Shown: positions 3,278-63,992 of the stretch, piece after piece
How positions within the stretch are numbered: the first letter of the stretch is position 1
Layout: each line of letters starts with the position of its first letter
Source of the DNA: Planctomycetota bacterium
Lineage (GTDB): Bacteria > Planctomycetota > UBA8108 > JACQVS01
DNA: 64,000 nt
Direction: 5' to 3'
Assembly (NCBI GenBank): GCA_016209605.1
Contig: JACQVS010000106.1
Span: 6,916-70,915 of the forward strand
The notes under the pieces: generated by a model
Seen by the model: only the letters and a program-made list of their open reading frames with translations
Databases searched by the model: none
What the model was told of the DNA's origin: nothing
Translations under genes and position numbers: made by a program

Positions 3278-5926
<2,649 letters not shown>

Positions 5927-8903: not shown

Positions 8904-10049
8904 TCATCTCGGAGAAACCATCAGCCAGCGGAGGTCGCTGGCATGAGAAAAGGTGATATCCATACCGAGCATATCCCGGGAATATGGCGCCATGGCCTGA
9001 GGCGAGACCACAAAGTTTCGACCCTTGGGATAATTGCTCCGGAATTCTGCCAATCCTTTGACTTCAAAGGAGGCAGCGTCCCATTTGCACTCAAAGGCAT
9101 CGCAAGCCCCGCGGCTTCGAGGGATCACGAAATCCACTTCCCGCTTTTGCTTGTCGCGCCAGAAATGGATAGCTTCCGAGCCTGATAAGGACGACAAAGT
9201 ATCCAGGACCAGATGCTCCCAAAGCAATCCACAATCATCGATCCGCAACTCCCCCCAGCCCCGGTAAAAGGCGGCAAATCCGGTATCGAACCCATAAACC
9301 TTGGGCTGCTGCAAGAGTTCCTGCCGGCCGCCGTGGTGATAAGGACGCAACAGGCGGATCGCATGAGTGACCTGAAGCACTTCGAGATAATTCAAGACGG
9401 TGGGACGGCTCAATCCGCATATTTTGGCCAGATTGGTGGCCTCGATGAGGCCACCGCTCTGGCGTAAGAGGGTTTCCAGCAGTAAAATAAAGCCTTTGCG
9501 TTTCTCGACCCGGAACAATTCCTGAATGTCCCTGGCATAATAAGAGTCGAGCCACTCGGCGTAAAACTCCGAATCCCTCTCCTCGGAAAGCAAAGCCTGC
9601 GGCAGGCCGCCGTGGAAGAGTCGTTTCTTCAGGTCGATCACCCCAAAGGCTGCCAACTCCTCGGCAATAACGGGCAAAAGGTGGACGGTTCTCTTTCTGC
9701 CGGCCAGGCTGTCACGGAACTTCTCCGTCGCGGCCAGCGTCGAAGATCCCGTGGCCAGCAGTTTCAAAGAGGGAAATGCGTCGGCGCCGATCTTCAAAAT
9801 CCTGCTGGGATCGTGGAGCTGGTGAATTTCGTCAAAAATGACGATCGGCTTCGAGACAGAAGCATAAAACCGCTCCGGATCTTTCAAAAGCTCCACCGTG
9901 CTGGGAAGATCGCAGTTGAGATAAGCGGCATCTGCAATGCTCCGGCAGAGGGTCGTTTTACCGACCCGGCGAACGCCAGCCAGCCAAGCAATTGGAGCTT
10001 TGGACCAAACATCATGAATTTTTTTCAGCCAGAGCTCGCGCCGAATCAT
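8904..10049 (-). CDS. AAA_14 / DUF4143-family ATPase
   Basis: 381 aa; Walker A GVRRVGKTT, domain order typical of the AAA_14+DUF4143 family. Confidence 0.8.
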   Translation of the reverse strand: MIRRELWLKKIHDVWSKAPIAWLAGVRRVGKTTLCRSIADAAYLNCDLPSTVELLKDPERFYASVSKPIVIFDEIHQLHDPSRILKIGADAFPSLKLLATGSSTLAATEKFRDSLAGRKRTVHLLPVIAEELAAFGVIDLKKRLFHGGLPQALLSEERDSEFYAEWLDSYYARDIQELFRVEKRKGFILLLETLLRQSGGLIEATNLAKICGLSRPTVLNYLEVLQVTHAIRLLRPYHHGGRQELLQQPKVYGFDTGFAAFYRGWGELRIDDCGLLWEHLVLDTLSSLSGSEAIHFWRDKQKREVDFVIPRSRGACDAFECKWDAASFEVKGLAEFRSNYPKGRNFVVSPQAMAPYSRDMLGMDITFSHASDLRWLMVSPR

Positions 10050-10114
10050 GAATGCCTATTTTACATTTAGCGGGTTAAATGTAAATAGTATTTTTAACGA
10101 TTCCCCTTTGCAAC

Positions 10115-10441
10115 TTACGGCCGCCGCAGTTCCTTGGCTTCCAAGTATCCGTCGCCGTTCCGGTCCAGCCGGTCGAACTCCCCCACTGGCCCCCGCCACT
10201 CCTGCCGCGACACCTTTCCGTCGCCGTCCCCGTCCCAGTCCTTTATCGGATTTCCCCTGGGCGGGCGCTCCGGCCGTCGCCTCTCGCCCGGCGCGCGTCC
10301 CCGCAACGCCTTCCCCTTCGACTTCCCCTCCAACTGGCCCAGGATCGACGCCACCCGGCGCTCGACGAACGGCTTCAGTCCGAACGCCGTCGCGTTCGCC
10401 GGCCCGCCACCGATCTCTACGTCCTCCGAGATCGACTTCAC
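10115..10441 (-). CDS. Small calcium-binding protein with two canonical EF-hand loops (start uncertain; possible GTG at 10441)
   Basis: C-terminus contains DWDGDGDGKVSRQE and DRNGDGYLEAKE, both perfect 12-residue EF-hand loops. The N-terminal 78 aa of the tracked 194-aa ORF overlap the upstream gene in another frame and are low complexity, so the true start is probably just downstream of 10467. Confidence 0.55.
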   Translation of the reverse strand: MKSISEDVEIGGGPANATAFGLKPFVERRVASILGQLEGKSKGKALRGRAPGERRRPERPPRGNPIKDWDGDGDGKVSRQEWRGPVGEFDRLDRNGDGYLEAKELRRP

Positions 10442-10466
10442 AAGCGTCGCCGTCGAATTCCCGGTT

Positions 10467-11777
10467 TTATTTGTTGCAGGGCAAGTCGTCGCGGGTGGGA
10501 TCGACTCCGGGATTGGGGTAGGGCTGGGGCAGGATGGGGCCCCCTTTGAAGAGGTAGTTGAGAATGTAAAAGGCGTCGGAGATGTCGAGGCGGCCATCGT
10601 CGTTGGCATCGGCGGCTTTCTGGCAAACCACCCTCTCGGTCCGGAAAAAGATGAAGTTGAGGACGCGGATGGGATCGGAGATATCGAGGTCCTCATCATC
10701 GTTGGCGTCGCCCCGGATGAACCTCGCCCCCAGCAAGAGCGACAGCCGGCCGTTTTCCTTGCGCGGCTCGACGCTCAGGTTGTTGACGATGAACAGATTG
10801 CGGATGGGCGGCTCACCGGCCCCATCCTGGAAAACGACCTCGGTGAACTCCTGGTCCGGGAGGGCCGACACCACCTGGATCTGCACCTTGGCGATGGCAA
10901 GGTTCAAGCCGCTGGCGGGAATAACCTGGTTTTCAAAAGGAGGCAAGGTGTCGAGGAGGACGCCCAGGATCAAGATCCCTCGATTGTTGTCGATCTTGGG
11001 AGCCACATATTCGGCGCCCACGGCCTCGGTGATGGTGTCTTCCACCCCCGCTCCCAGAACCTGCAGCCGGGCCGGATCAAACTTCACCGCCAGGGAAAAA
11101 CCCTGCAGCGGCTCGATGTTGAAGGCGGCGACTTCCAGCTCGATGGTCTGCCCCACCACCACATCCTCGAGGTCGCGGATCTTGAGATAATTGTCATTGA
11201 TCACCGTCGCCGCGCCGTTTACCAGGGTGACCGGCGGGATGCTCGAGCCGTCCCGATAAATCAACGCCGGCACCGGCGGAATGCCCAGATTGCTTTTGAG
11301 CAGAATGGGAAACTCCGATCCCGGCTTGAGCCCCTGCTCCATCGAGAAATCGAGGCGGACCAGCTTCACGGCCGTCCCGGAAGGAATGTCGTTCTGGAAG
11401 GGGGGCGTGTTGTCCAGGATCGCCTGGATGGTGGCATGCCCGCTGGAGGTGATCACCGGATAAAATACCTCGAGCGGCTTCCGCCCGATCGCCGTGCCGT
11501 CAAAGGAGAACTTGAGGAGCCGCATGGCATACTGAGGGAACTCGATGCCGAACTGGAAGCCGCGGATGGGCAGGTTGAGCTGGGCTTGGACGTAGAGTGA
11601 AAAATTGGACCCGGGAAGCACATCCTGCCGGCCCAAAGTTAGTACGGCATCCTGGGCCAAGATCTCCCCCGCCGCCAGAAAGGACACGAAACCTGCGACC
11701 GCTCTCAACCCGGCGGAGCGGGAGGTCTTCCTGGTGCCGCGTGAAAAAGGTGAACGGGGAGAAAAAGAGGCTTTCAT
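10467..11777 (-). CDS. Secreted protein with a C-terminal pair of dockerin-type calcium-binding repeats
   Basis: 436 aa; N-terminal signal peptide (AVAGFVSFLAAGEILAQ), beta-rich body, C-terminal GDANDDEDLDISDPIRVLNFIF and DANDDGRLDISDAFYILNYLFKG (dockerin type I-like). Confidence 0.7.
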   Translation of the reverse strand: MKASFSPRSPFSRGTRKTSRSAGLRAVAGFVSFLAAGEILAQDAVLTLGRQDVLPGSNFSLYVQAQLNLPIRGFQFGIEFPQYAMRLLKFSFDGTAIGRKPLEVFYPVITSSGHATIQAILDNTPPFQNDIPSGTAVKLVRLDFSMEQGLKPGSEFPILLKSNLGIPPVPALIYRDGSSIPPVTLVNGAATVINDNYLKIRDLEDVVVGQTIELEVAAFNIEPLQGFSLAVKFDPARLQVLGAGVEDTITEAVGAEYVAPKIDNNRGILILGVLLDTLPPFENQVIPASGLNLAIAKVQIQVVSALPDQEFTEVVFQDGAGEPPIRNLFIVNNLSVEPRKENGRLSLLLGARFIRGDANDDEDLDISDPIRVLNFIFFRTERVVCQKAADANDDGRLDISDAFYILNYLFKGGPILPQPYPNPGVDPTRDDLPCNK

Positions 11778-11930
11778 GAAAAATCTCCACGATCAAGCAG
11801 AGGCTGGAATTGATGGAACTGCGGATCAGAGCGTAAACGTCAGCCGTTTATTTCAAGACGTAGCCTCTATTGTAGCCCCTTTCAGCCAAGGGTCAATCGT
11901 GAAAACCCCGCCTTCCCCCCCCGGCTGGAT

Positions 11931-13286
<1,356 letters not shown>

Positions 13287-13298
13287 TCCCCCTTTCTT

Positions 13299-13378
13299 AT
13301 AATGCGGGCTTCGCCCGCAACCGAGCTATCCGCAACTTCTCCGCAAGAAGCGGAGAAGTTGCGGAGGAAAAATCTAAA
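13299..13378. repeat. Intergenic composite palindromic repeat, family A, copy 1 (forward orientation)
   Basis: taatgcgggcttcgcccgcaaccgagctatccgcaacttctccgcaAGAAgcggagaagttgcggaggaaaaat: a 6-bp hairpin plus a 16-bp hairpin. Near-identical copies at 22044, 26790 (reverse) and 43188 (reverse). Confidence 0.8.
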
Positions 13379-13434
13379 AAATCCTCTTCCCGATCCTTCT
13401 CCGGACCTTTTTCTAGACTTTTTTTGGACAGGGC

Positions 13435-15336
13435 TTACCAGCCGCTCTCCCCTACCTCCAGGTTTTTCTCCCAGACCCGATAGCACTCGGCGATTTGCGC
13501 CTCCAGATCGGCGATCTCCTTTTTCAGGCGCCGCATCGCCTCCGGGTTGAGATAGACCTCGGCTCTGGCGGTATCCTGATGCTTCTTCTGCAGCACCGCT
13601 TCCAGGGCCTCAATTTTCTGGAGCCACTTCTCCTCGCGAATCCGCGGCAGCGGGCTGCCTGCAGGCGGCCGGCGCGCCGCCGCCTTGGGCTTCTCGCGCC
13701 TGCTTTCCTCGCTGGCCTGCTTCTCCGCCTCGCGCCGGCGCCGGAGATCCTGGCGGTACTGCTCGAAGCCGCCGGTGAGTTCCCGCAGCCGGCCGTTTTC
13801 AACCACCAGGAAACGATCCGCCAGCCGTTCAATAAAATAACGGTCGTGGGTGACAAACACAACCGTTTCCGTAAAATCCTCCAGGCTGTGCTCCAGAGCT
13901 TCCCGGGAAGGGATGTCGAGATGAGTCGTCGGCTCATCCAGGACCAGGAGGTTGGCGCCGGAGAGCACCAGGCGCAGGAGCGCCAGGCGCGCCTTTTCGC
14001 CGCCGCTCAAGCTCTTCACCGGAAGGCGGATGCGGCTTTCCCGGAACAAGAACGCCGCCAGCAGGTTGCCTACCTGCAAGTGGGTCCATTTCGGAACCAG
14101 ATCGTGGATTTCCTCGAAGACCGGCCGATCGCTGCTCTCCTCCGTGGGCTCTTGCCGGTAATATCCAACCTTGGTTCGCGCTCCCCGGCGTACTCCCCCT
14201 GCCAGCTGGGGCAGCTCGCCGGCCATGGTGCGAAGCAAGGTGGTTTTCCCCGAGCCGTTCGTGCCCAGGATAGCCACCCGCTCCCGGCGCTGGAGGTTCA
14301 ACCAGACGTCCTGAATCACCGGCTGGTTCGCTCTAAAACCGCAGGCCGCTTCTTCCATGCTGATGACCTCGTCGCCGCCCCGCGCCGCCAGGGAAAAGGA
14401 GAACTGCGGGGCGTGGTCCTCCTGCCGCGGCGCCTCCAGAATCTCCATGCGCTCGAGTTTCCGGACCCGGGATTTGGCGCGGCTGGCGTTCTGCCCGTAA
14501 AAATTGCGGCGGATGAACTCCAGCTCGCGGGCAATCTCCTCCTGCTGCTCCTCGTAAAGCTTCTGCTGCAGGGCGATTTCCTCCGAGCGCTGGCGCACGT
14601 AGGCGTCGTAGTTGCCGCGGTAGGTGAATACCCGGCGTTCGCGGACTTCCAGGATGTATTGGGCGGCGCGGTTGAGCAGGTAACGGTCATGGGAGGAGAA
14701 GAGCAGGGTGGCCGGCGACTCGAGGAGGAACTCCTCCAGCCATTCCACCATCTCGATGTCGAGGTAGTTGAGCGGCTCGTCGAGGAGCAGGATGCCGGCA
14801 TCGGCGAAGATGATTTTAGCCAGAGCCACCCGCTTCTTCTCTCCGCCGCTGAGAGTGGCGAGGTCGCGGTCGCTCATCGCCGGCGCGATGCCCAAATGCC
14901 GGAAGATGAGATCGACCCGCCGCTCGCGGTCGCGCCCCCCCTCCTCGTCATACTGTTTGAGCAGCTGCCGGTGCCTCTCCACCAGGCGGTCCAGCCTGTG
15001 GGGATCGCTCTCGGACTCCATCTGGCGCTCGACCTTTTGAATGGCCTCGAGGAGGCTCCAGAGCGTGGGATGGGACTCTAGGACATGAGCGCGCCCCCGG
15101 CTGCCTTCGGGGAACTGCGGCTCTTGCGGCAGGTAAGAGAGGCGGCGCCCACGCGCCACCTGGACCTTCCCCTGGTCGGGGGCGTAGTTTCCCAGGATGA
15201 GGTTGAAGATTGTGGTCTTGCCGCAGCCGTTCGGCCCGATCAAGCCGACCCGCGCCCCTTCCGGGACCAGAAAGGAGGCCCCTTCGAAGAGCGGGTGATC
15301 GCCGATGGAGAAGTGGACGTTGTCGAAGAGGATCAC
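13435..15336 (-). CDS. ABC-F family ATPase (Uup/EttA-like, two ABC domains, C-terminal coiled coil)
   Basis: 633 aa; two Walker A sites (GPNGCGKTT, GTNGSGKTT), two LSGGE signatures, no membrane domain. Confidence 0.9.
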   Translation of the reverse strand: MILFDNVHFSIGDHPLFEGASFLVPEGARVGLIGPNGCGKTTIFNLILGNYAPDQGKVQVARGRRLSYLPQEPQFPEGSRGRAHVLESHPTLWSLLEAIQKVERQMESESDPHRLDRLVERHRQLLKQYDEEGGRDRERRVDLIFRHLGIAPAMSDRDLATLSGGEKKRVALAKIIFADAGILLLDEPLNYLDIEMVEWLEEFLLESPATLLFSSHDRYLLNRAAQYILEVRERRVFTYRGNYDAYVRQRSEEIALQQKLYEEQQEEIARELEFIRRNFYGQNASRAKSRVRKLERMEILEAPRQEDHAPQFSFSLAARGGDEVISMEEAACGFRANQPVIQDVWLNLQRRERVAILGTNGSGKTTLLRTMAGELPQLAGGVRRGARTKVGYYRQEPTEESSDRPVFEEIHDLVPKWTHLQVGNLLAAFLFRESRIRLPVKSLSGGEKARLALLRLVLSGANLLVLDEPTTHLDIPSREALEHSLEDFTETVVFVTHDRYFIERLADRFLVVENGRLRELTGGFEQYRQDLRRRREAEKQASEESRREKPKAAARRPPAGSPLPRIREEKWLQKIEALEAVLQKKHQDTARAEVYLNPEAMRRLKKEIADLEAQIAECYRVWEKNLEVGESGW

Positions 15337-15428
15337 GGGTTCATGAAAAAATTCAAGAGCTGCAGGTGACGAAAATGGAGATTATACTGGCAGGAATTCT
15401 GGGAGGGAATTCTCAATTCAAGGGTCAA

Positions 15429-23527: not shown

Positions 23528-26170
23528 TTATGCCGGCGCCTTCCCCCGGACCGATGCCACCATGGCCTCCAGGGCCTCCTCGGCCCCTTGCGGTTTGGCG
23601 CCGCCGGCGCGCACCATCTCGGAATTGCCGCCGCCGCGGCCTTCAATGGGCGCGAGCCCGGCCTGGAAGATGTGACGGCAGTCCCAGCCCGCCGCCGTCA
23701 GGTCCCGGGAGACGGCCACGAGGACCTGCACCTTCCCCTCCTGCCGGGCGAGGAAGATGAAAATGCCCCGCCGGGTGCTGTGCTTGAGGCCGTCGTAGGC
23801 CGCCAGGGCGGCGTCGAGACCGCCCCCCTCCAGGATGCCGTAGTGGAGGTCGATGGCCCGCTCGCCGGCGCCGATCTTCTCCGAGCGCAGGCCGAGGGCG
23901 GCCGGGGAGTCCTTCCGGGCGGGTCCGGCCGGCTTCTTCCCCTCTCGCGAACGCAGCTTCTTCAGCTCCTCGAGGTCCTTGCCGAGGCGCTCGAGGATCT
24001 GCTCGGGCGGCACCCGCAGCTGGGCGGCCAGTTCTTCCACCAGGCGGGCGTTGCGGCGGTGGAAGGTGGCCGCCTCCCGGTCGGTCAAGGCCTCGACGCG
24101 GCGCACCCCCGCCGACACCGAGCCTTCCTTCACCAGGGCGAAGGCACCGAGGTCCCCGGTGTGCTGGACATGGGTGCCGCCGCACAGCTCGAGCGAGAAG
24201 TCGCCGATCCTCACCACCCGCACGCGGTCGCCGTACTTTTCGCCGAAGAGCGCCATGGCCCCCTGGCGGACGGCGTCCTGGTAGTCGGTCTCGAAGGTCT
24301 CGACCGGCAGGTTGCGCGAGATCAGGGTCTGGACCAGCTCCTCCACTTGCTGCCGTTCATCGAGGTTGATGCCGCTGAAGTGGGTGAGGTCGAAGCGCAG
24401 CCGCGCCGGCTCGACCAGGGAGCCCTTTTGATGGACGTGCTGGCCGAGGGTCTGGCGCAGGGCGGCATGGAGGAGGTGCGTGGCGGTGTGGTTGCGCTCG
24501 ATGGCCGCCCGGCGCTCGGCATCGATTCTGGCCGTCAGGACCGACCCCGGCTGGACGCGGTCGGGGTTCCCCTCGAGCAGCCGGCCGTAGTGGATCCAGC
24601 GGCCGCGGTCCTTGCGCGTGTCCAGCACCTCGAGCACGAAATCGTCCCCCTCCATGCGGCCGGTGTCCCCCACCTGGCCGCCGCTCTCGGCGTAAAAGGG
24701 GGTTTGCGACAGCACCAGGCGCCAGTCCTCGCCGCGCTGCTGGGCGCCGAGGAGCTCCCCCTCGCAGATGCTCCGGCGGTAGCCGACGAACTCGGTCTCG
24801 GGGAAGCGCTCCAGGTCGAGCGCCTCGCTCGCCTCGCCCTTGACCAGGACCCCGAACCGCGACTCCTTGCGCGAGCGCGCCTTCTGAGCCTCCATCTCGC
24901 GCTCGTAGCCCTCGAGGTCCACCCGCATGCCGATCTCCCCGGCCATCTGCTGGACCAGGTCGACGGGGAAGCCGAAGGTGTCGTAGAGGACGAAGACCTC
25001 CTTCCCGGGGACGGTCTTCTCCCCGCTTTTCCGCAGCCTCGCCGCCATCTCCTCGAAGAGCTGGATGCCCTGGTCGAGGGTGCGGTCAAAGCGCTCCTCC
25101 TCGCTGCGGATCACGCCCTCGAGGTACTTGCGGCGCTCGGCGATCTCCGGGTAGGCGCCGGCCATGGTCTCGATCACCGTCTCCACCAGCCGGCAGAGGA
25201 GCAGCTCGCCGCCGGTCTGGATCTTGCGGCCGTAGCGGGCGGCGCGGCGCAGGATGCGCCGCAGCACGTAGCCGCGCCCTTCGTTGGAGGGCTCGGCGCC
25301 GTCGGCAAAGGCGAAGACCAGGGAACGGATGTGGTCGGCGATGACCCGGTGCGGCGTGCCGGCGGGGCCGCTCTCGTAGCGCTTGCCGGTCAACTTCTCG
25401 AGGCGCGCGATGATGGCCCCCAGGACGTCGGTTTCGAAGACCGAGTCGGCTCCCTGGAGCACCATGGCGATGCGCTCGAGCCCCATGCCGGTGTCGATCG
25501 AGGGGCGGGCGAGGGGGGTCTTCTTGCCGCCTTCGGCCTGGTCGAACTGCATGAACACCAGGTTCCAGATCTCGAAGAAGCGGTCGCAGTCGCACTGGCC
25601 AATGCCGCACCGTGGGCCGCAGGAGTACTTCTCGCCGCGGTCGATGAGGACCTCCGAGCACGGCCCGCAGGGCCCCACCTCGCCCATGCTCCAGTAGTTG
25701 TCCTCCTCTCCCAGGCCGACGATGCGCTGGGCGGGAACGCCCGCCTTGGCCTGCCAGAGCTGGCGGGCCTCCTGGTCATCCTGGTAGACCGTCACCCAGA
25801 GGCGCTTCGGGTCGAGCTTCAAGCGGGCGGTCAGGAGCTCCCAGGCGAACTCGATGGCCTCCTCCTTGAAGTAGTCGCCAAAGGAGAAGTTCCCCAGCAT
25901 CTCGAAGAAGGTGAGGTGGCGGGCGGTGTAGCCGACGTTGTCGAGGTCGTTGTGCTTGCCGCCGGCGCGAATGCACTTCTGCACGGTCGCCGCCCGGCGG
26001 GCGGGCGCCTTCTCCTTGCCGGTGAAAACGTTCTTGAACTGGTTCATGCCGGCGTTGGTGAAGAGCAGGGTGCGGTCGCCGTGGGGGATGACCGGGCTGG
26101 AAGGCAGGACATTATGGCCCTTGCTTTCAAAATAGCTCAAGAAGGACTGGCGGATCTCCGGGGTGTTCAT
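23528..26170 (-). CDS. alaS: Alanine--tRNA ligase
   Basis: 880 aa; class II motifs, FTNAGMNQFK, editing domain HTATHLLH, C-terminal DHHA1. Confidence 0.97.
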   Translation of the reverse strand: MNTPEIRQSFLSYFESKGHNVLPSSPVIPHGDRTLLFTNAGMNQFKNVFTGKEKAPARRAATVQKCIRAGGKHNDLDNVGYTARHLTFFEMLGNFSFGDYFKEEAIEFAWELLTARLKLDPKRLWVTVYQDDQEARQLWQAKAGVPAQRIVGLGEEDNYWSMGEVGPCGPCSEVLIDRGEKYSCGPRCGIGQCDCDRFFEIWNLVFMQFDQAEGGKKTPLARPSIDTGMGLERIAMVLQGADSVFETDVLGAIIARLEKLTGKRYESGPAGTPHRVIADHIRSLVFAFADGAEPSNEGRGYVLRRILRRAARYGRKIQTGGELLLCRLVETVIETMAGAYPEIAERRKYLEGVIRSEEERFDRTLDQGIQLFEEMAARLRKSGEKTVPGKEVFVLYDTFGFPVDLVQQMAGEIGMRVDLEGYEREMEAQKARSRKESRFGVLVKGEASEALDLERFPETEFVGYRRSICEGELLGAQQRGEDWRLVLSQTPFYAESGGQVGDTGRMEGDDFVLEVLDTRKDRGRWIHYGRLLEGNPDRVQPGSVLTARIDAERRAAIERNHTATHLLHAALRQTLGQHVHQKGSLVEPARLRFDLTHFSGINLDERQQVEELVQTLISRNLPVETFETDYQDAVRQGAMALFGEKYGDRVRVVRIGDFSLELCGGTHVQHTGDLGAFALVKEGSVSAGVRRVEALTDREAATFHRRNARLVEELAAQLRVPPEQILERLGKDLEELKKLRSREGKKPAGPARKDSPAALGLRSEKIGAGERAIDLHYGILEGGGLDAALAAYDGLKHSTRRGIFIFLARQEGKVQVLVAVSRDLTAAGWDCRHIFQAGLAPIEGRGGGNSEMVRAGGAKPQGAEEALEAMVASVRGKAPA

Positions 26171-56838: not shown

Positions 56839-57001
56839 TTTGTAGATCTGTATGTAGATCTAAACCTAGAATATTGAGAGGTAAGGCTTTATCGGAATTC
56901 CAATTATAGTGGAGGGGGGATCTAGGGTCAAGGGGGCTGGATTAATTCCTTTTCAGCCGGCCCCCCTTGCCATAAACTCCCCCTTGCCATAAACTCCCCG
57001 C

Positions 57002-58297
57002 ATGAAGCGAATCCTTTACTTAGACGCTTTTTCGGGCATCAGCGGCGACATGTTCCTGGGGGCCTTGGTGGATGCCGGCCTTCCCCTGGAGCCGCTCCTC
57101 AAGGGTCTCAAGGCCCTGGCGGTGGAAGGCTATCAAATTTCCGCCCAGAAGGTGTATCGGGGGCCGTTTCACGCCACCCGGCTGAAGGTGCATGTGAACA
57201 GCGGCACGGGAAATCGCTCGCCCGGCAACCAGCACGACCATTCGCACGGCCACGGGCACTCCCATTCGCACGATCACGGCCACTCGCCGCCGAAATCCGC
57301 ACCCGAAGCGGTCAATCCGGCCACCGAGCGGAGCTATCGGACCATCGTTCAGCTCATCCGCTCCAGCTCCCTGCCGGAGCGGGTTCAGGGGCTGGCCATC
57401 CGGGTTTTTACCCGCTTGGGCGAGGCGGAAGCCAGGGTGCACGGCGTACCGCTGGATGAAGTCCACTTCCATGAGGTGGGGGCAGTCGACTCCATCGTCG
57501 ACATCGTCGGCGCCTGCTTCGGGCTCTACTATCTCGATATCGAGACGGTCTGGTGCTCCCCCATCACCTTGGGAACCGGCTTGGCGAAGGGAGCCCATGG
57601 CACCTTCCCCCTGCCGGCCCCCGCCGCCCTGGAAGTGCTGAAGGGAGTTCCGGTGCGCCAGCGCGACACCGGTTTCGAGCTCTGCACCCCCACGGGCGCG
57701 GCGCTGGCCGCTTCCCTGGCCAGCGGCTTCGGCACCTTCCCGCCCCTGCGAGTCTCTTCGATCGGCTACGGCGCCGGCGACGATCGTCCCGGCGAGGTGC
57801 CCAACGTCCTGCGCGTCGTGATCGGGGAGAGCGGCGAGGCGCGGGAGCGCGACCGGGTGGTTCAGATCGAGGCCAACCTTGACGACGCCAGCCCCCAGTG
57901 GCTCGGCTACCTGCAAGAGCAGCTCCTCGCCGCCGGGGCTCTCGACGTCGCCATCACGCCGGTCTTGATGAAGAAGTCGCGGCCGGGGCACCTCCTCACG
58001 GTGCTGGCGACGCCAGGGAAAGAAGCGGTCCTCGAGGATTTGATCTTCCAGGAGACCCCCACCTTCGGCCTGAGGAAGCAGGAGGTGGAGAGGGTGATCC
58101 TGGCCCGCGATCTGGTCCCGGTCGCCACGCCGTGGGGGGAAGTGAGGGTCAAGGTCGGCCGGCGCGGCGGCGCCGTCGTCACCGCCGCGCCGGAGTATGA
58201 AGATCTGAAGAAGCTTGCCCAGAGCACCGGCCAGCCGATCAAGGAGCTGTCGAGGCGGGTGATGGAGGAGTTTCACCGGGGCGTCAAGTCCGGCTGA
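57002..58297 (+). CDS. larC: LarC-family nickel-pincer cofactor nickel insertase (DUF111)
   Basis: 431 aa; N-terminus MKRILYLDAFSGISGDMFLGAL. A His-rich insert HDHSHGHGHSHSHDHGH. C-terminal LarC_C domain. Confidence 0.88.
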   Translation: MKRILYLDAFSGISGDMFLGALVDAGLPLEPLLKGLKALAVEGYQISAQKVYRGPFHATRLKVHVNSGTGNRSPGNQHDHSHGHGHSHSHDHGHSPPKSAPEAVNPATERSYRTIVQLIRSSSLPERVQGLAIRVFTRLGEAEARVHGVPLDEVHFHEVGAVDSIVDIVGACFGLYYLDIETVWCSPITLGTGLAKGAHGTFPLPAPAALEVLKGVPVRQRDTGFELCTPTGAALAASLASGFGTFPPLRVSSIGYGAGDDRPGEVPNVLRVVIGESGEARERDRVVQIEANLDDASPQWLGYLQEQLLAAGALDVAITPVLMKKSRPGHLLTVLATPGKEAVLEDLIFQETPTFGLRKQEVERVILARDLVPVATPWGEVRVKVGRRGGAVVTAAPEYEDLKKLAQSTGQPIKELSRRVMEEFHRGVKSG

Positions 58298-58645
58298 TCC
58301 GCGCCATGGAGATGACACGGTTCCCGGAGCACTCGATCCCACTTCTTGGGAGACGCATCACCGCGAGGGTTCCGGGCTCTGCATGCGAGCCCGCAGCGCA
58401 TCCTCCACCTTTGCGGCGGCATCCTGTTTTCTTACAGTCAAGCTTTCACTGATACTGCAAACGAGCCGAAGGATCAATGGGAAATCGTGGCGCTTATCCG
58501 TATTTTGTGGACATCCAAACCGGCATGGCGTATATTTTCCTTCAGGGTTTTCCTTAATATCTGCGAGCGCTGGTCCGACCCTTTTACCTGATGACATGGG
58601 CCTCTGTGGGCTTCCAAAAGGCCCCGTGTCAGGGAGGAGTTTTCC

Positions 58646-61600
58646 ATGAGGACAAGGACTCGTTCTCGAGGTTCGATGGCCATCATCCTGATCCCCTTGT
58701 GGCTTGGCCCGGCTTCCCCGGTCTTCGGCGAGGAGACTTTCTTCAAGCGCGGCGATTCCAACTCCGACGGGACCCTGGACATCTCGGACCCCATCCATTC
58801 GCTGGAATTTCTCTACATCGGAAAGCCGGGGCCGACCTGCATGGACGCCGCTGACGCGAACGATGACGGGGGTTTGGACCAGAGTGACGCCATCTACTCT
58901 CTCGAGTTCAAGTTCCTCGGGGGACCTCCCCCGCCGCCGCCGTTCCTCGAGTGCGGCGCGGATCTTACCTCGGATGATGAGCTCGGCTGCGGCAGCTTCG
59001 CCCCCTGCCAACCGCCGGTCGAGCCTCCGCTTCCGACCTTCAGCGAGGCGGAGGCGCGCGGCTCCGGGCCGGGCCACCCCTGGCAAGGCGGGCCCTGGTT
59101 GGGCGCTCTCAACGCCTGGCTGCTACGCGACCTGGTCAACCTGGCCTCGCTCAGCCTCCAGGCAAGGGCGTTCCTGGTGGCCCTGCGGACGCCAAGCGGC
59201 CTCACCGTGCCCGTTTCCCTCTACCACAACTCCCAGGCCGCGTACTCCAACCCCGTTCTCCCGAAAAAATGGAACCACTCGCTCTGGGTCTTCCTGCTGC
59301 CGTACGTCGAGCAAGACAACATCCAGCGGATGGGCCTTTACTGGGGCAATCACACCGAGCAGCGGTTCAAGCTCCAGGGCGGCCAGTGGACGCCGCTCGA
59401 CGGCTACCGCGACGGCCTCCAAACCACCCCGACCGGCGCCACGCTGACGCTCCACGACCAGACGAGGCTGGAGTTCTTCGCCGGGTACCTCGCTGGCAAG
59501 CGGGCGTACCTGCTGGACCGGATCGTCGATACGAGCGGCCAGGCGATCGACCTGGACTACGACATGTCCGGCCGCGTCGCCTCGGCCACGGACCCCGCGG
59601 GTCGGACCCTCGCCCTGACGTACAACCCCGACGGGCGGCTCGCGCAAGTCACCTTCGCCTACGGGGCCTTCTCGCGCTCCTGGGAGATGCGCTACGAGAA
59701 CGATACGCTCGCGCAGATCGTGTACCCGCCGGTCACCACCGACGCCGGGCCCCAGGTTTACACGGCCTCGTTCGCGTACGACCCCCGGGGCAACATCGTC
59801 AAGACCACCGATCGCGAAAGGAACGAGTGGCTCTACGGCTACGACTTCACCCCCGTGCCCGACCGGCTGCGCTGGGTCCAGCCGCCGGGGAACACGCCCG
59901 CGCAGCGCTTCGAGTACAAGTGGCTCGATCCGGTGACGAGGGAGTTCGTCGATCCGGTGGGCGCCACGTCGCGGATCACCTATGACGCCTTCAACCGCGT
60001 GGTCTCGTGGTCTCAGGTGACTACGACGCAGGGCTTCACGTGGGCCCTGCAATACACCGACGGCGATTACCCCTGGGCGCCTTCGATCGTCAGGGCGCCG
60101 TCGGGCACGAGCTGGCAGTACGACTATGACCCGGCGGGCAATCCGATCGGCGCGATCGACCCCGCCGGCAACCGCTGGGACTACACCTACGACGCGTTCA
60201 ACAACCTGGTCCAGGTCCTCCAGCCGCTGATCAGGGACGTCTGGGGGAACACCGAGCCGGGCCGGCGCCGGATGGATCTGGACTACGACTCCAACCACCG
60301 CCTGATCCTCCGCCGGCGCCTGGCCCGGTTCGCGAGCCCGCTCAACGAGTCCCACGAGTGGTCATACCTTTACAACCCTTTCGGCCAGGTGACCCATGCG
60401 ACTGATCCCCTGGGGCGCACCACGGTGTACACCTACGACCCCCTGGGCAACCTCATCGAGGTCAGGTCGCCCGAGGGGCGCACGTTCGAGTGGAAGCACT
60501 TCGACCCCGAGGGCACATTCGGCTTCACCCTTCCCGACGCGGTGGTCAACGGCCTGGGGCAGTTGACCAAGCTGGCCCGCGACGAGTGGGGCCGGCTGCG
60601 CATGAAGGACTATCCCGCGAGCCCGGACGAGAAGTACTCCTACGACGGGCTGTCGCGCCTGGTCCGCGCCGAGGACGCCTTCACCCCGCCGACCGTGTAC
60701 ACGTACTACGCCTCCGGCCCCCTGTTGGCGCAGGAGCGCGGGCCGCAACGCCTCCAGATCGCCCGCCTGCCCAACGGCCGGCGCGCCAGCGTGGTCGAGT
60801 CGGGCGTCCCCCTGCCGCGGAACCTCCAGTACCAGTACGACCAACGCAACCTGCTCAAGACTTTGATCGACGGCGGGGCCCAGATCGGCTTCGCCTATGA
60901 CGAGGACGGGAGGCTGATCCAGCGGACCCTGCCCAACGGCGTCTCGGCGGAGTACGCGTACAACTTCGGCAAGCTGACGTCGATCGGCCACCGCCAGCCC
61001 GGCGGCCCCCTGTTCGCGGTGTTCGACTACGGGTACCAGGCCAACGGGCAGCGGATGCAGGTGGTCGAGATGGGCGGCGCGGCCACGGTCCGCTACGGCT
61101 ACGATCTGCTCGACCGGCTGGCGCGCGAGGAGCGGAGCGGCGCCGTCCCCTACGAGTTCCGGTGGATTTACGACGCGGCGGGCCATCGGCTCAGTCAGCT
61201 CCAGGACGGCCTGCTCACGGAATACAGCCATGACCAGGACGGCCTGCTCACCCAGATGACCGGCCCGCCGGGCGCGCGGACGTACGCCTGGGACGCCGCC
61301 GGGCGGCTCGTCCAGCGCACCTTCTCCCGGATCACCGAGACCTTCGCGTATGACGACGCGGGCCGCCTGATCCACGCCGACCAAGTCCAGCAGGGCATGC
61401 TTCCGCTGCCCTGGCGCGATTACCTTTACAACGCCCTGGGCAGGAGGATCCTGCGCCTGGCGTTCGCCGCCCTCGGCCAGCCGGAGAGCCAGACGGCGTT
61501 CTCAGACGCCGCGGGGGCGCCGTTCCGCGAGGAGCGGATCTCGCTCCAGGGGGGAGGGCAGACCTCCTTCCGGCCGACCTTCGCGGGCGGGCTGGTGCGC

Positions 61601-62275
61601 TGGCTGGACGTGAACACCGGCCAGTGCATGTACCCCGCCACCGACGCCGACGGCTCGATCCGAGCCTGGACCGACAACTCCGGGGCCGTGGGCCCCTACG
61701 CGGCGGTCTACAACGCCTTCGGCCAGGCCATCCTCGACCAGGGCCCGCGCCCGCCTTACGCCTTCGCCGCGGACTCAGGCGCGCGCAACGATGGCGACTT
61801 CGGGTGGCTCGCGCTCCCCGGCGGCGGCTTCTACAGCCCGGTGGAGCAGATTCTTGTAGGGCAAGCGGTCGGGGGGCACAACCCGCAGAGGGGGATTCCC
61901 TGGGAGCCCGGGTTACCTCAGCTCAGCGGCCTCCTCTCGATCGCAACCGGAGGTACCGGGTTCTCCTGGGGCTCGGCCACCCAGGATGAAGACCCAGCGG
62001 ACCGGGCCCTTCGCGAGATGGAAGAGGCCGCGGCGGGGGCAAGGCTGGGGGAGTTTCACTTCCACTACCAGGTTCCCCGGAGCTCTTTTGGTCATTTCTG
62101 TGCCTGCCATCTTGTAGGCGGCGGGGGTTGCAGTTCTTGCCTCGCGGAGGTCGAGAAAGAATATGAGGAATGGAACGATCCGAAACGCAACCCGTGCCCC
62201 AAGTGCCCGCCCCCACCGCCCCCTCCGGTGATCCGGATCTACCCCGAGTTGTGGGCGCGCGGGGAGAGCATCTAG
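58646..62275 (+). CDS. YD/RHS-repeat protein with an N-terminal signal peptide plus two dockerin-like Ca-binding repeats and a Cys-rich C-terminal domain
   Basis: 1209 aa. N-terminus: GDSNSDGTLDISDPIHSLEFLY and ADANDDGGLDQSDAIYSLEFKFLGG. Many YD repeats (YDAFNRVV, YDPAGNPIG, YTYDPLGNLIEV, YAYDDAGRLI…). C-terminal ~100 aa carry HFHYQ…CACH…CSSC…CPKCPPPPPPP. The canonical RHS DPxGL core boundary is not evident. Confidence 0.85.
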   Translation: MRTRTRSRGSMAIILIPLWLGPASPVFGEETFFKRGDSNSDGTLDISDPIHSLEFLYIGKPGPTCMDAADANDDGGLDQSDAIYSLEFKFLGGPPPPPPFLECGADLTSDDELGCGSFAPCQPPVEPPLPTFSEAEARGSGPGHPWQGGPWLGALNAWLLRDLVNLASLSLQARAFLVALRTPSGLTVPVSLYHNSQAAYSNPVLPKKWNHSLWVFLLPYVEQDNIQRMGLYWGNHTEQRFKLQGGQWTPLDGYRDGLQTTPTGATLTLHDQTRLEFFAGYLAGKRAYLLDRIVDTSGQAIDLDYDMSGRVASATDPAGRTLALTYNPDGRLAQVTFAYGAFSRSWEMRYENDTLAQIVYPPVTTDAGPQVYTASFAYDPRGNIVKTTDRERNEWLYGYDFTPVPDRLRWVQPPGNTPAQRFEYKWLDPVTREFVDPVGATSRITYDAFNRVVSWSQVTTTQGFTWALQYTDGDYPWAPSIVRAPSGTSWQYDYDPAGNPIGAIDPAGNRWDYTYDAFNNLVQVLQPLIRDVWGNTEPGRRRMDLDYDSNHRLILRRRLARFASPLNESHEWSYLYNPFGQVTHATDPLGRTTVYTYDPLGNLIEVRSPEGRTFEWKHFDPEGTFGFTLPDAVVNGLGQLTKLARDEWGRLRMKDYPASPDEKYSYDGLSRLVRAEDAFTPPTVYTYYASGPLLAQERGPQRLQIARLPNGRRASVVESGVPLPRNLQYQYDQRNLLKTLIDGGAQIGFAYDEDGRLIQRTLPNGVSAEYAYNFGKLTSIGHRQPGGPLFAVFDYGYQANGQRMQVVEMGGAATVRYGYDLLDRLAREERSGAVPYEFRWIYDAAGHRLSQLQDGLLTEYSHDQDGLLTQMTGPPGARTYAWDAAGRLVQRTFSRITETFAYDDAGRLIHADQVQQGMLPLPWRDYLYNALGRRILRLAFAALGQPESQTAFSDAAGAPFREERISLQGGGQTSFRPTFAGGLVRWLDVNTGQCMYPATDADGSIRAWTDNSGAVGPYAAVYNAFGQAILDQGPRPPYAFAADSGARNDGDFGWLALPGGGFYSPVEQILVGQAVGGHNPQRGIPWEPGLPQLSGLLSIATGGTGFSWGSATQDEDPADRALREMEEAAAGARLGEFHFHYQVPRSSFGHFCACHLVGGGGCSSCLAEVEKEYEEWNDPKRNPCPKCPPPPPPPVIRIYPELWARGESI

Positions 62276-62639
62276 CCCCTTTGGACGACGCTCCTCCCTT
62301 GCCGTCCTGTTCGCGCACGAGGCGCGTGAACCGGCCCCGGCGGTCCTTGAAGTTCCTCGAGGATTTCGTCGAGAGGACCTACTTCTTCGTGGCTCGAAAG
62401 AAGAGGCGGACGGCGGCTCAGCCGCGATAGGCCGAGCCGGATCAACGGAGCCGACCTACTTCTCCTCGCCTGCCTCTTTCTTCTCGGGCGCCGGTTTTTC
62501 CGGAGGCGCCGGCGCTCCCGCCTCCGGCCGCCGGTCCGCTCTCCACTTCTGGATCTGCGGCGTCTTCTCCTCGAACTCGCGCATGAGGCGCCCGACCTCG
62601 GCGGGCGGCTGCCCCTTGGCGGGGGAGCGCTGCTGAGCT

Positions 62640-62956
62640 GGACCGGCCAGAGCCCCTGGGAGCGAGACTGGTACGATTGGCGTCGCCCGGACTGGTACGG
62701 TAACTTCGAGATCATCAGAGGCCCCGAGGACCCCCGCTGGCAGGACCCGATGCTCTGGGGAAACCGCTCGTGGTACGAGGACCCAAGTTCCCCCGGGTAC
62801 AGGCCATAGCCTCTCCAGGTCGGTTTTGCGACGGCGGACCGGAAGGCTTTCGAAGTCGACGTCTCCGGTCCGTTTCTCGAGATCGATTTTGCCCGTAAGG
62901 TCGAGAATCCGAAGATCTCCGCCATCGAGATCGAGCGGCTGGAGCGGGAGAAGTGA
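62640..62956 (+). pseudogene. Coding-like open frame downstream of the RHS gene with an in-frame TAG (62807) and no canonical start; possibly a degraded small gene
   Basis: Frame 2 reads …TGQSPWERDWYDWRRPDWYGNFEIIRGPEDPRWQDPMLWGNRSWYEDPSSPGYRP*PLQVGFATADRKAFEVDVSGPFLEIDFARKVENPKISAIEIERLEREK* with GC3-rich codon pattern. Speculative. Confidence 0.2.
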
Positions 62957-63191
62957 AATCCGGGCACAGCCGCGCGATCCGACTTGGGCGGTTACCGTGG
63001 TCGTTGGCGGCTAGCGTTGCGGCGAGCCCTCGAGCTATCACATCTCGCTTCCTGCCGTCGACTACCGCGTCCCCCTGCACTTTGCTGAGACCTGTTTCAA
63101 AATTGTCGTTCGTCCATTGCTCGATTCTGTCCCGGGCCGCCATTGTAGAATCAATGTCCCGCGGCCAGAAGGAGGAGCACGATAAATCTGA

Positions 63192-63992
63192 TCACGATAG
63201 CAGCTCCGTCTGGAACTTCTTGAGCTGGTTCTTGAGCCTGAGGAGGATGCGGGAGTGGAGCTGGCAGACGCGCGATTCGGAGAGGTTCAAGGTGGCGCCG
63301 ATCTCTCGCATGGTGAGGTCCTCGTAATAGTAGAGGAGGAGGATCAGCCGCTCTTTCCGGTTCAAGCCCTTGGTGATGAACTCGGTGATCTCCTTGCGCT
63401 TGAGCTCCGACTCCGGATCGACCCCCTTCTTGTCCTCGAGGATGTCGATCTTGCGGAGGACCTTGGAGCCCTGCTCCTCCTTGCTCTTCTCGTTCAAGCT
63501 GACGATCGAGATGGCGCTCGCCTCGCAAAGGAGCTCCTCGTACTCGCACATGCTCATGCTCAAGCGCTCGGCCATTTCCGGATCGGTGGGAGCGCGTCCG
63601 AGTTCCGCCTCGAGTTCCCGCCAGGCGGTTTCTACTCGGTTGGCCTTGTTCCGCACGATGCGGGGCACCCAGTCCAGCGAGCGGAGTTCATCGAGGATGG
63701 CGCCGCGGATGCGAGTGGTGCAGTAAGTCTCGAATTTCACTCCGCGGCTGAGGTCGAATCCATTGACCGCATCCATGAGGCCGAAGATGCCGGCGCTGGT
63801 CAAGTCATCCAGCTCGATGTTGTGGGGCAACTTCGCGAGCAGCCTTTCCGCAATGTACTTGACCAGAGGCAAGTAGCGCTCGATCAGAAGATTGCGGAGG
63901 CTCTCATCGCCGGTTGCCTTGAACTCTTTCCAGACTTTTTCAATGTCGAAGGCCTCTTCCTTCTTTTTTTTCCTCTTGCGGGTTGCAACCAC
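63192..63992 (-). CDS. fliA: RNA polymerase sigma factor, FliA/WhiG (sigma-28) family
   Basis: 266 aa; region 2 (…YLPLVKYIAERL…DLTSAGIFGLMDAVNGFD…FETYCTTRIRGAILDELR), region 3, region 4 HTH (LTMREIGATLNLSESRVCQLH). Confidence 0.85.
   Translation of the reverse strand: MVATRKRKKKKEEAFDIEKVWKEFKATGDESLRNLLIERYLPLVKYIAERLLAKLPHNIELDDLTSAGIFGLMDAVNGFDLSRGVKFETYCTTRIRGAILDELRSLDWVPRIVRNKANRVETAWRELEAELGRAPTDPEMAERLSMSMCEYEELLCEASAISIVSLNEKSKEEQGSKVLRKIDILEDKKGVDPESELKRKEITEFITKGLNRKERLILLLYYYEDLTMREIGATLNLSESRVCQLHSRILLRLKNQLKKFQTELLS

Follow-up and report, generated by a model that had tools for sequence, protein, structure and literature searches.

What does a putatively secreted YD-repeat shell carry, and how is it held at the cell, when the features by which such shells are usually recognised as toxin capsules are missing? 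Known Rhs/YD shells are toxin capsules of type VI secretion systems (T6SS), Tc complexes and Gram-positive walls, with release by an autoprotease and an adjacent immunity gene. The gene at 58646-62275 (here rhs) lies in a stretch of 64,000 nucleotides (nt) from a Planctomycetota bacterium (assembly GCA_016209605.1, contig JACQVS010000106.1), the whole of which is called the window below. Its product belongs to a clade that retains the shell and a cassette-like exchange of cargo, and for which neither an autoprotease nor an immunity gene was found. The reading favoured here, to which we give a probability of roughly 55%, is that the rhs protein is a Sec-exported, dockerin-tethered YD shell with an exchangeable tail as cargo, acting as a surface-displayed, diversifying effector.

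A compact YD shell in a rare clade

The product of the rhs open reading frame (ORF) is unambiguously an Rhs/YD-repeat protein. The first-pass annotation, made from the sequence without database searches, had named it as such, and the profile search bears this out, with YD repeats matched by PF05593 (E = 2.7e-50, 10 stretches) and TIGR01643 (E = 9.3e-41, 7 stretches) and a shell fold that agrees with both. YD-repeat profiles also match 14/14 members of the clade. The identical protein is deposited at NCBI as 'MAG: RHS repeat protein [Planctomycetes bacterium]'. The AlphaFold2 (AF2) model of amino acids (aa) 125-1209 has a predicted template modelling score (pTM) of 0.74, and the per-residue confidence (pLDDT) of the shell is mostly 80-93. 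Foldseek with the shell model ranks T6SS Rhs cores first (3e-47), teneurins next (1e-33) and TcB-TcC after them (1e-24), and the clade sequence profile matches RhsA 7q97 at 1.4e-60.

The clade comprises 15 proteins of 1,030-1,200 aa (among them a fragment of 703 aa), with E values from 0 to 1e-88. Ordinary DUF6531-Rhs proteins (1,300-2,100 aa) begin at E = 1e-48 in the same homology search. PF03527 is absent from the clade members, and PF20148 from all of them but P0011. Members are found in Planctomycetota and Fimbriimonadia. Public contigs were scanned with GPGHPWQ[GA], the only usable pattern of the full clade alignment, and the scan gives three loci among 185,579 species genomes (one-per-species GTDB; Fimbriimonadia and Phycisphaeraceae) and eight loci in JGI metagenomes. 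The clade is rare, and it is distinct from ordinary Rhs proteins.

The layout common to the clade is a putative signal peptide, an ARxxGPGHPWQG motif, a YD shell of ~900 aa, a degenerate Rhs core end and a hypervariable tail of ~140 aa, and the alignment is conserved from the N-terminal motif to about residue 1073. In the rhs protein, aa 1-28 show a charged n-region followed by a hydrophobic h-region (inspection only), and similar charged and hydrophobic leaders are present in those relatives for which the full N-terminus is available. The motif has A137, G141, P142, G143, H144 and W146 invariant among the 14 members aligned. It is modelled at low confidence, and is probably an N-terminal plug or the start of the shell. 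In most relatives the signal peptide runs straight into '...ITxxQARxxGPGHPWQG'.

P0003 has a different, Cys-rich N-terminal insert. At its locus (L004) a canonical DUF6531-Rhs protein of 1,879 aa is encoded at 9770-15409, 191 base pairs (bp) downstream of P0003, and the N-terminus of this neighbour (…AEVCSCPGDLTINALQDGGDVQRFVECLLS…) resembles the Cys-rich insert. P0003 and its neighbour are two Rhs types in one locus with a common N-terminal module.

A degenerate core end

In Rhs, ABC-toxin and bacterial teneurin-like proteins both Asp residues of DPxG-x18-DPxG are catalytic; metazoan teneurins lack this motif (PMC13018210). The end of the shell in the rhs protein is homologous to the region that carries this motif, since alignment with six canonical Rhs proteins places YPATDADGS...YNAFG...FYSP on YYHxDxLGS...YDxFG...RYYDP. 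In place of the D-P of the first DPxGL, the rhs protein has N-P, and every relative apart from P0007 has T/W/S/G-P. The same alignment holds no second DPxG motif, and no DP.G motif occurs within the last 300 aa. TIGR03696 (Rhs_assc_core) is matched by 0/14 clade members at E<=1, and by 4/4 canonical Rhs proteins used as positive controls (1e-21 to 1e-25). That the canonical DPxGL…DPxGL terminus could not be recognised had been remarked on at first pass, and the profile and motif searches agree on this clade-wide.

Both catalytic Asp of the autoprotease are missing. Because of this loss, the tail is presumably not freed by canonical autoproteolysis. WEPGL at aa ~1087-1091 was considered as a degenerate DPxGL and rejected, because the x position is missing, the spacing does not fit and the sequence is not retained in the nearest relative.

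Exchange of the tail and a displaced relic

The junction between core and tail, near aa 1073, is sharp, and after '...VG' the sequences of the relatives are unrelated. Over its last 92 residues the core shares 86%, 76% and 65% identity with P0002, P0003 and P0004, and the tails beyond are dissimilar. The 20 tails available from proteins and loci form only two small families (P0009/P0010/P0012/L007 and P0013/P0015), the rest being singletons, and the present tail is unrelated to the tails of all relatives. Tail lengths in the clade range from 106 to 173 aa, with a mean of 140 and a standard deviation of 17. No Pfam toxin domain is found in any clade tail. On inspection, the tails of P0013 and P0015 are Gly-zipper-like and look membrane-active, those of P0002, P0003 and P0009 are Trp/Arg-rich, and those of L011, L014 and L016 have long charged helices. 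Several of these tails thus have a membrane-active or coiled-coil look, and not that of an enzyme.

A search for orphan C-terminal cassettes, which had been proposed as a check, locates part of a P0003-type tail at 62630-62806, ~360 bp past the rhs stop codon. This relic is 69% identical to P0003 aa 1115-1173 over 59 aa (E = 3.7e-23; 5.6e-21 by tblastn), and its DNA is 77% identical to the P0003 locus over 126 bp. Coding-like periodicity in the GC content of third codon positions (GC3) continues over 62610-63029, and the decayed frame that follows the relic at 62810-62956 has no Pfam match and no match to the fetched proteins or loci. The relic is partial, with no core fragment or core-derived repeat beside it, and 17 related loci hold no orphan cassettes of other tails. 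As read from the sequence, it is direct evidence of tail replacement by recombination, and together with the mostly unrelated tails after a sharp junction it makes the description of the protein as polymorphic well founded. The ancestor would have carried a P0003-type tail, and an incoming segment of ~760 bp (61865 to ~62630) would have brought the present tail, displacing the older tail's 3' half downstream.

Between the rhs stop and the relic there is a putative 42-aa minus-strand ORF with an ATG start (62456-62584, MREFEEKTPQIQKWRADRRPEAGAPAPPEKPAPEKKEAGEEK), with GC3-like periodicity of 0.80-0.86. Of the small ORFs, it alone might conceivably have come in together with the new cassette.

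Rhs cores and tips classically differ in composition. The drop in GC3 from core (0.93) to tail (0.74) in the rhs gene echoes this difference, and in most high-GC clade members the tail GC3 is also below that of the core. Codon-position GC over the whole tail is 0.67/0.54/0.74, which is coding-like.

A dockerin module and a candidate partner

The rhs protein has a module of ~90 aa between the signal peptide and the clade motif, in which duplicated Ca loops of the form DxNxDGxxDxxD are followed by a conserved, Cys-containing extension (P-rich...CGxDPTxDxLxC). The same module is C-terminal in the protein encoded at 10467-11777 on the minus strand. The two copies are 52% identical and are the only ones in the window, so that the sharing of a dockerin pair by the two proteins, noted at first pass, stands. 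In the AF2 model of the 10467-11777 copy a helix follows each loop (H366-377 and H398-410). A profile of 10 modules matches the solved dockerins 4fl4 (1.8e-9), 2mte (9e-7), 1daq (CelS; 1e-6) and 2y3n (3e-6), with EF-hand proteins far weaker, and 9/10 profile members match PF00404 (Dockerin_1), the best at 2.4e-8. The N-terminal insert is, at the profile level, a dockerin by sequence, an assignment made because of the 10-sequence profile and not because of the single copy.

The module is also present on unrelated secreted planctomycete proteins, among them endonuclease I, an M10 peptidase, SUMF1, metallo-beta-lactamase and PKD proteins, and is therefore a general tag. A word-indexed search with the module returned four proteins. 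GC3 over the stretch encoding the signal peptide and dockerin (58646-59017) is 0.79, against 0.88-0.97 over the shell (59018-61864). This lower value is in keeping with later acquisition of the insert, as for the tail. The tail of P0006 (L003, ~9400-9480) contains a lone dockerin-like Ca loop, DADDGKLDISDP, followed by Pro-rich sequence, and its match to the profile is weak (independent E value 0.002).

A search for cohesin-like partners had been suggested at first pass, and the 10467-11777 protein itself answers to one. Its AF2 model (pLDDT 86.5) has two beta-sandwiches and a helical dockerin. Foldseek identifies the sandwiches as cohesins, with matches to the cohesin dyad 3l8q (4e-14) and to single cohesins of type I, the latter with template modelling (TM) scores of 0.75-0.82 and root-mean-square deviations of 2.6-3.8 Å. 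PF00963 was not detected on this protein in the Pfam search; some of its more distant relatives carry both PF00963 and PF00404. The protein belongs to a conserved family of ~420-440 aa on Planctomycetota-type metagenome contigs. On the basis of the model it is adaptor-scaffoldin-like and a candidate docking partner for the rhs dockerin, which is N-terminal in the rhs protein and C-terminal in the adaptor.

Points against a tethered effector, and the alternatives

Several results weigh against the rhs protein being a dockerin-tethered effector. Those that bear on docking begin with the rhs copy of the module, which scores 12.1-13.4 bits against PF00404, under the 22.9 cut-off (16.7 bits for the 10467-11777 copy), and on which EF-hand models also score weakly. 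The dockerin named at first pass is borne out by the Ca loops and the profile, and the lone copy falls below the Pfam cut-off. The rhs and adaptor genes are 47 kb apart. Among ~20 clade members the module is found in just two, the rhs protein and P0006, so that docking is not intrinsic to the clade. The module is an optional insertion, the clade default being a signal peptide and then the motif, and it does not stand 'instead of the usual Rhs N-terminal domains', as had been proposed. That the rhs dockerin docks onto the adaptor cohesins is a prediction from the analysis.

The sub-threshold score, the distance to the adaptor gene and the lack of the module in most clade members would also suit a pair of EF-hands that bind Ca and merely keep the protein stable or soluble, in which case the co-occurrence with the adaptor would be coincidental. 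This explanation seems rather unlikely, because the family profile ranks solved dockerins first and EF-hand proteins well behind, the module recurs promiscuously as a tag at the ends of many secreted enzymes, and one polypeptide combines it with cohesin folds and has relatives with PF00963 and PF00404.

A second group of results concerns immunity and delivery. The ORF list, all six frames and the GC3 phase give no credible same-strand ORF for an immunity gene in 62276-62630, and 10 related loci have no immunity-like genes, though a very small or unconventional gene is still possible. The downstream genes at these 10 loci (Pirin, a GT2 glycosyltransferase, a convergent PQQ protein, the canonical Rhs of 1,879 aa and sigma-factor-like ORFs) are unrelated to one another and show no co-variation with the tails. 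The scanned ORFs of the window include no genes of T6SS, Tc complexes or mobile elements, and the related loci have no T6SS or Tc genes. Long minus-strand open frames in 62276-63190 were set aside as spurious, as they lack a start codon or have the wrong codon-position GC, and have no Pfam match.

These absences bear most directly on a canonical Rhs toxin, that is, a self-cleaving, encapsulated enzymatic toxin delivered by T6SS or Tc and accompanied by a cognate immunity gene. The rhs protein agrees with this class in its polymorphic tails with an orphan relic, and its shell is closest to T6SS Rhs cores. It departs from it in core domain and motif (TIGR03696 and both DPxG motifs absent, controls positive), in immunity, and in delivery, with a putative signal peptide in place of PAAR, VgrG or DUF6531, none of which was found in the Pfam and profile search of the protein. 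The canonical explanation is largely refuted and can hardly be right.

The third group concerns the present tail. An exhaustive phmmer search with aa 1062-1209 finds no homologue among 1.84e9 representative proteins, PDB sequences give no match, and Pfam gives nothing besides a poly-Pro artefact. P0121 (E = 8e-5, 8 stretches) was discarded as a homologue, as it is a repetitive junk protein. AF2 models the tail as disordered, with one short helix and a pLDDT of ~22. No toxin family or fold is found in the tail by Pfam, PDB sequences or AF2. The idea of a toxin in the first-pass annotation is not upheld, given also that the tail has no homologue, no adjacent immunity gene and no autoprotease.

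The same annotation described the tail as Cys-rich with poly-Pro, and this holds: six of the protein's 11 Cys are in the tail, all within aa 1152-1187, and a 7-Pro run follows them. A small metal-binding domain was also proposed, which gains no support from the model and is suggested by the Cys/His spacing alone (CxCH-x7-CxxC-x18-CxxC). As a guess from the sequence, this spacing would be compatible with a small Zn site, and three disulfides would be equally plausible in an exported protein.

It is possible that the present tail is a non-functional read-through of unrelated high-GC DNA, entered after a rearrangement destroyed a P0003-type tail. The missing homologues, the pLDDT and the relic of the older tail downstream are in keeping with this, as are the low-complexity runs (GGGG, PPPPPPP), a weak codon-position GC periodicity in 61980-62220 and the few-percent chance, by rough estimate, of a random 130-codon open frame in DNA of ~66% GC. 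However, the GC pattern over the whole tail is coding-like, and the same GC3 drop is present in most relatives with intact tails. The length of 136-143 aa is also that of the clade mean, and a Cys/His spacing this regular is unlikely, though possible, at random. Read-through is decidedly improbable on balance.

The protein may instead have a non-toxic role at the surface, as an adhesin or as a teneurin-like cell-cell interaction or structural shell, its tails being fast-evolving, largely disordered appendages under weak constraint. The protease motif is missing in metazoan teneurins as well (PMC13018210), and this explanation would account for the lack of an immunity gene, for clade tails without Pfam toxin domains, and for their low complexity, since they are Pro-, Trp/Arg- or coiled-coil-rich and the present one is modelled as disordered. 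But free drift would spread tail lengths more widely than the tight range observed, some tails look membrane-active on inspection, and wholesale replacement at one junction together with a relic is the cassette-exchange signature of polymorphic toxins. A non-toxic surface protein appears unlikely, and the exchangeable-cargo effector is preferred.

Genomic context

The rest of the window is of a housekeeping character, with genes for SecA, alanyl-tRNA synthetase, an ABC-F ATPase, LarC upstream of rhs and a FliA-type sigma factor downstream. The spacer of 348 nt upstream of rhs has a GC content of 55%, below that of both the window (62%) and the ORF (68%). The AT-richness noted at first pass is thus real; the proposal that it marks foreign or promoter-rich DNA does not hold, as a second intergenic spacer (56839-57001) is at 47% GC, and the composition is ordinary for intergenic DNA with no sign of foreign origin. 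A single sigma-70-like site is found in the upstream spacer, where shuffled sequences predict 0.1. No RNA families or riboswitches from Rfam were found in the upstream spacer or the whole window, and no terminators downstream of rhs.

The FliA-type sigma factor gene is next to a further ORF (62715-63143 and 63192-63992, both on the minus strand). The ORF that follows the sigma factor gene has ~60 protein-like codons (MAARDRIEQWTNDNFETGLSKVQGD…), then becomes Arg/Ser-rich, and has no Pfam match. A frameshift in a small gene, or its truncation, may explain this pattern. Coordinates of the features are collected in Table 1.

Table 1. Features of the rhs gene, its surroundings and the adaptor gene (positions in the window; residues in the encoded protein).
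Feature	Position	Strand	Residues (aa)	Basis or remark
Rhs/YD-repeat protein gene	58646-62275	+	1209 plus stop	ATG start
Sigma-70-like promoter match TGGACA-17-TATATT	58508-58536	+		consensus match only, in the 348-nt spacer
Shine-Dalgarno-like GGGAGGAG	58632-58639	+		6 nt 5' of ATG, read from sequence
Putative Sec signal peptide MRTRTRSRGSMAIILIPLWLGPASPVFG	58646-58729	+	1-28	by inspection
Planctomycete-type dockerin module	58739-59008	+	32-121	motifs, 10-member profile
Ca loop DSNSDGTLDISD	58754-58789	+	37-48	exact 12-residue motif
Ca loop DANDDGGLDQSD	58853-58888	+	70-81	exact 12-residue motif
Clade-specific N-terminal motif TFSEAEARGSGPGHPWQGG	59036-59092	+	131-149	clade alignment
YD-repeat beta-shell	59135-61864	+	~164-1073	AF2, Foldseek, profile
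Degenerate Rhs-associated core end (YPATDADGS...YNAFG...FYSPVEQILVGQ)	61631-61864	+	996-1073	alignment
Hypervariable tail	61865-62272	+	1074-1209	alignment, searches
His/Cys cluster and poly-Pro run of the tail	62057-62227	+		sequence
Displaced relic of older tail LLSWTGQSPWERDWYDWRRPDWYGNFEIIRGPEDPRWQDPMLWGNRSWYEDPSSPGYRP, then TAG	62630-62809	+		without start codon, in rhs frame
Decayed frame past TAG (PLQVGFATADRKAFEVDVSGPFLEIDFARKVENPKISAIEIERLEREK*)	62810-62956	+		protein-like, coding-like GC3
LarC nickel-insertion protein gene	57002-58297	+		just upstream of the rhs gene
Secreted adaptor gene: signal peptide, two cohesin-fold modules, dockerin	10467-11777	-	436	AF2, Foldseek
Cohesin-fold modules of the adaptor			~43-195 and ~200-346
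Dockerin of the adaptor			~352-435
SecA gene	3278-5926	-
Alanyl-tRNA synthetase gene	23528-26170	-

A proposed surface-displayed, diversifying effector

In the favoured reading, the Ca-binding dockerin would tether the exported shell to a cohesin scaffold at the cell surface, in a non-cellulosomal assembly resembling the 'planctosome' described below. The tail of ~15 kDa would be the cargo of the shell, its narrow length range being compatible with a size limit set by the lumen. As there is no autoprotease, the tail would probably remain joined covalently to the shell, unless it is freed by other means. By analogy with WapA and the bacterial teneurin-like proteins, the system most likely serves as a surface effector in antagonism or in interaction between cells. 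Should the cargo be functional, release and self-protection must differ from those of known Rhs proteins, or the shells are non-toxic, as in teneurin evolution.

A broader proposal, which is speculative and still to be regarded as doubtful, is that these proteins make up an unrecognised class in Planctomycetes and some Armatimonadota: compact, Sec-exported YD shells without autoprotease, with exchangeable cargos of ~15 kDa without immunity genes, and mounted through dockerins on a cohesin scaffold in some lineages. If true, the result would be a cellulosome-like 'weapon rack', or a surface display of diversifying effector or recognition peptides, and would extend cohesin-dockerin assembly to Rhs-type cargo. 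The literature searched holds no paper that combines Rhs, YD repeat and dockerin, so that, within that literature, an Rhs-type cargo would be new for a scaffold of this kind.

Comparison with known systems

T6SS Rhs effectors (RhsA 7q97, Rhs1/Tre23 7pq5, Tse5 8cp6 and RhsP 8h8a) are the best matches to the shell in both sequence and structure, and have a shell of ~1,000 aa and a cargo of similar size. What sets them apart are PAAR, VgrG or prePAAR N-termini, autoproteolysis at the N- and C-terminal sides, toxins that are enzymatic or form pores, and immunity genes; none of these is found here.

WapA of Bacillus subtilis and Streptococcus suis is a wall-associated, Sec-exported, N-terminally anchored YD shell with a polymorphic C-terminal region (PMC12704120). 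The rhs protein resembles it in having a Sec signal peptide (putative here), an N-terminal module that would hold it at the surface, a YD shell, a polymorphic C-terminus and orphan C-terminal fragments downstream. WapA is anchored by cell-wall-binding or LysM modules, whereas the rhs protein has no such Pfam matches and has a dockerin-like module instead. WapA also retains the core cleavage motif, known toxin domains and an adjacent downstream immunity gene, which were not found here, and it is a Gram-positive protein two to three times longer, in contrast to the planctomycete host of rhs.

Bacterial teneurin-like proteins (PDB 9ifo and 9pt5) are Sec-exported and N-terminally anchored, with polymorphic C-terminal domains of ~15 kDa (PMC13018210). 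Like the rhs clade, they are rare and scattered and have variable N-terminal display modules, a YD shell, and a hypervariable C-terminus thought to be limited in size by the lumen. Planctomycetota are not among the phyla reported for them (PMC13018210). They have a superfold of FN-plug, NHL and YD shell, with ~2,100-2,200 aa in the solved examples. An NHL domain has no Pfam match in the rhs protein, whose 1209 aa leave no room for one and whose AF2 model has a shell only. The teneurin-like proteins keep DPxG-x18-DPxG with a conserved Arg and self-cleave, and almost all have a downstream immunity gene, unlike the rhs protein, which lacks the motif and for which no such gene was found. In metazoan teneurins, too, the YD shell has no aspartyl protease motif, and the C-terminal region stays covalently attached, as it probably does here. 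They differ in being type II membrane receptors of eukaryotes, with EGF, NHL, ABD and Tox-GHH domains, and the likeness is limited to the loss of the protease.

The closest parallel for the proposed tether is the 'planctosome', a non-cellulosomal cohesin-dockerin surface complex of planctomycetes that has been proposed with peptidases as cargo (PMC6461901). The window resembles it in an adaptor that combines a signal peptide, cohesins and a dockerin, and in dockerin tags on secreted proteins that are not cellulolytic. The dockerin tag of the rhs protein and the cohesin-dyad adaptor are a concrete candidate pair for these hypothetical complexes, in which the dockerin-tagged cargo here would be an Rhs/YD shell in place of a peptidase.

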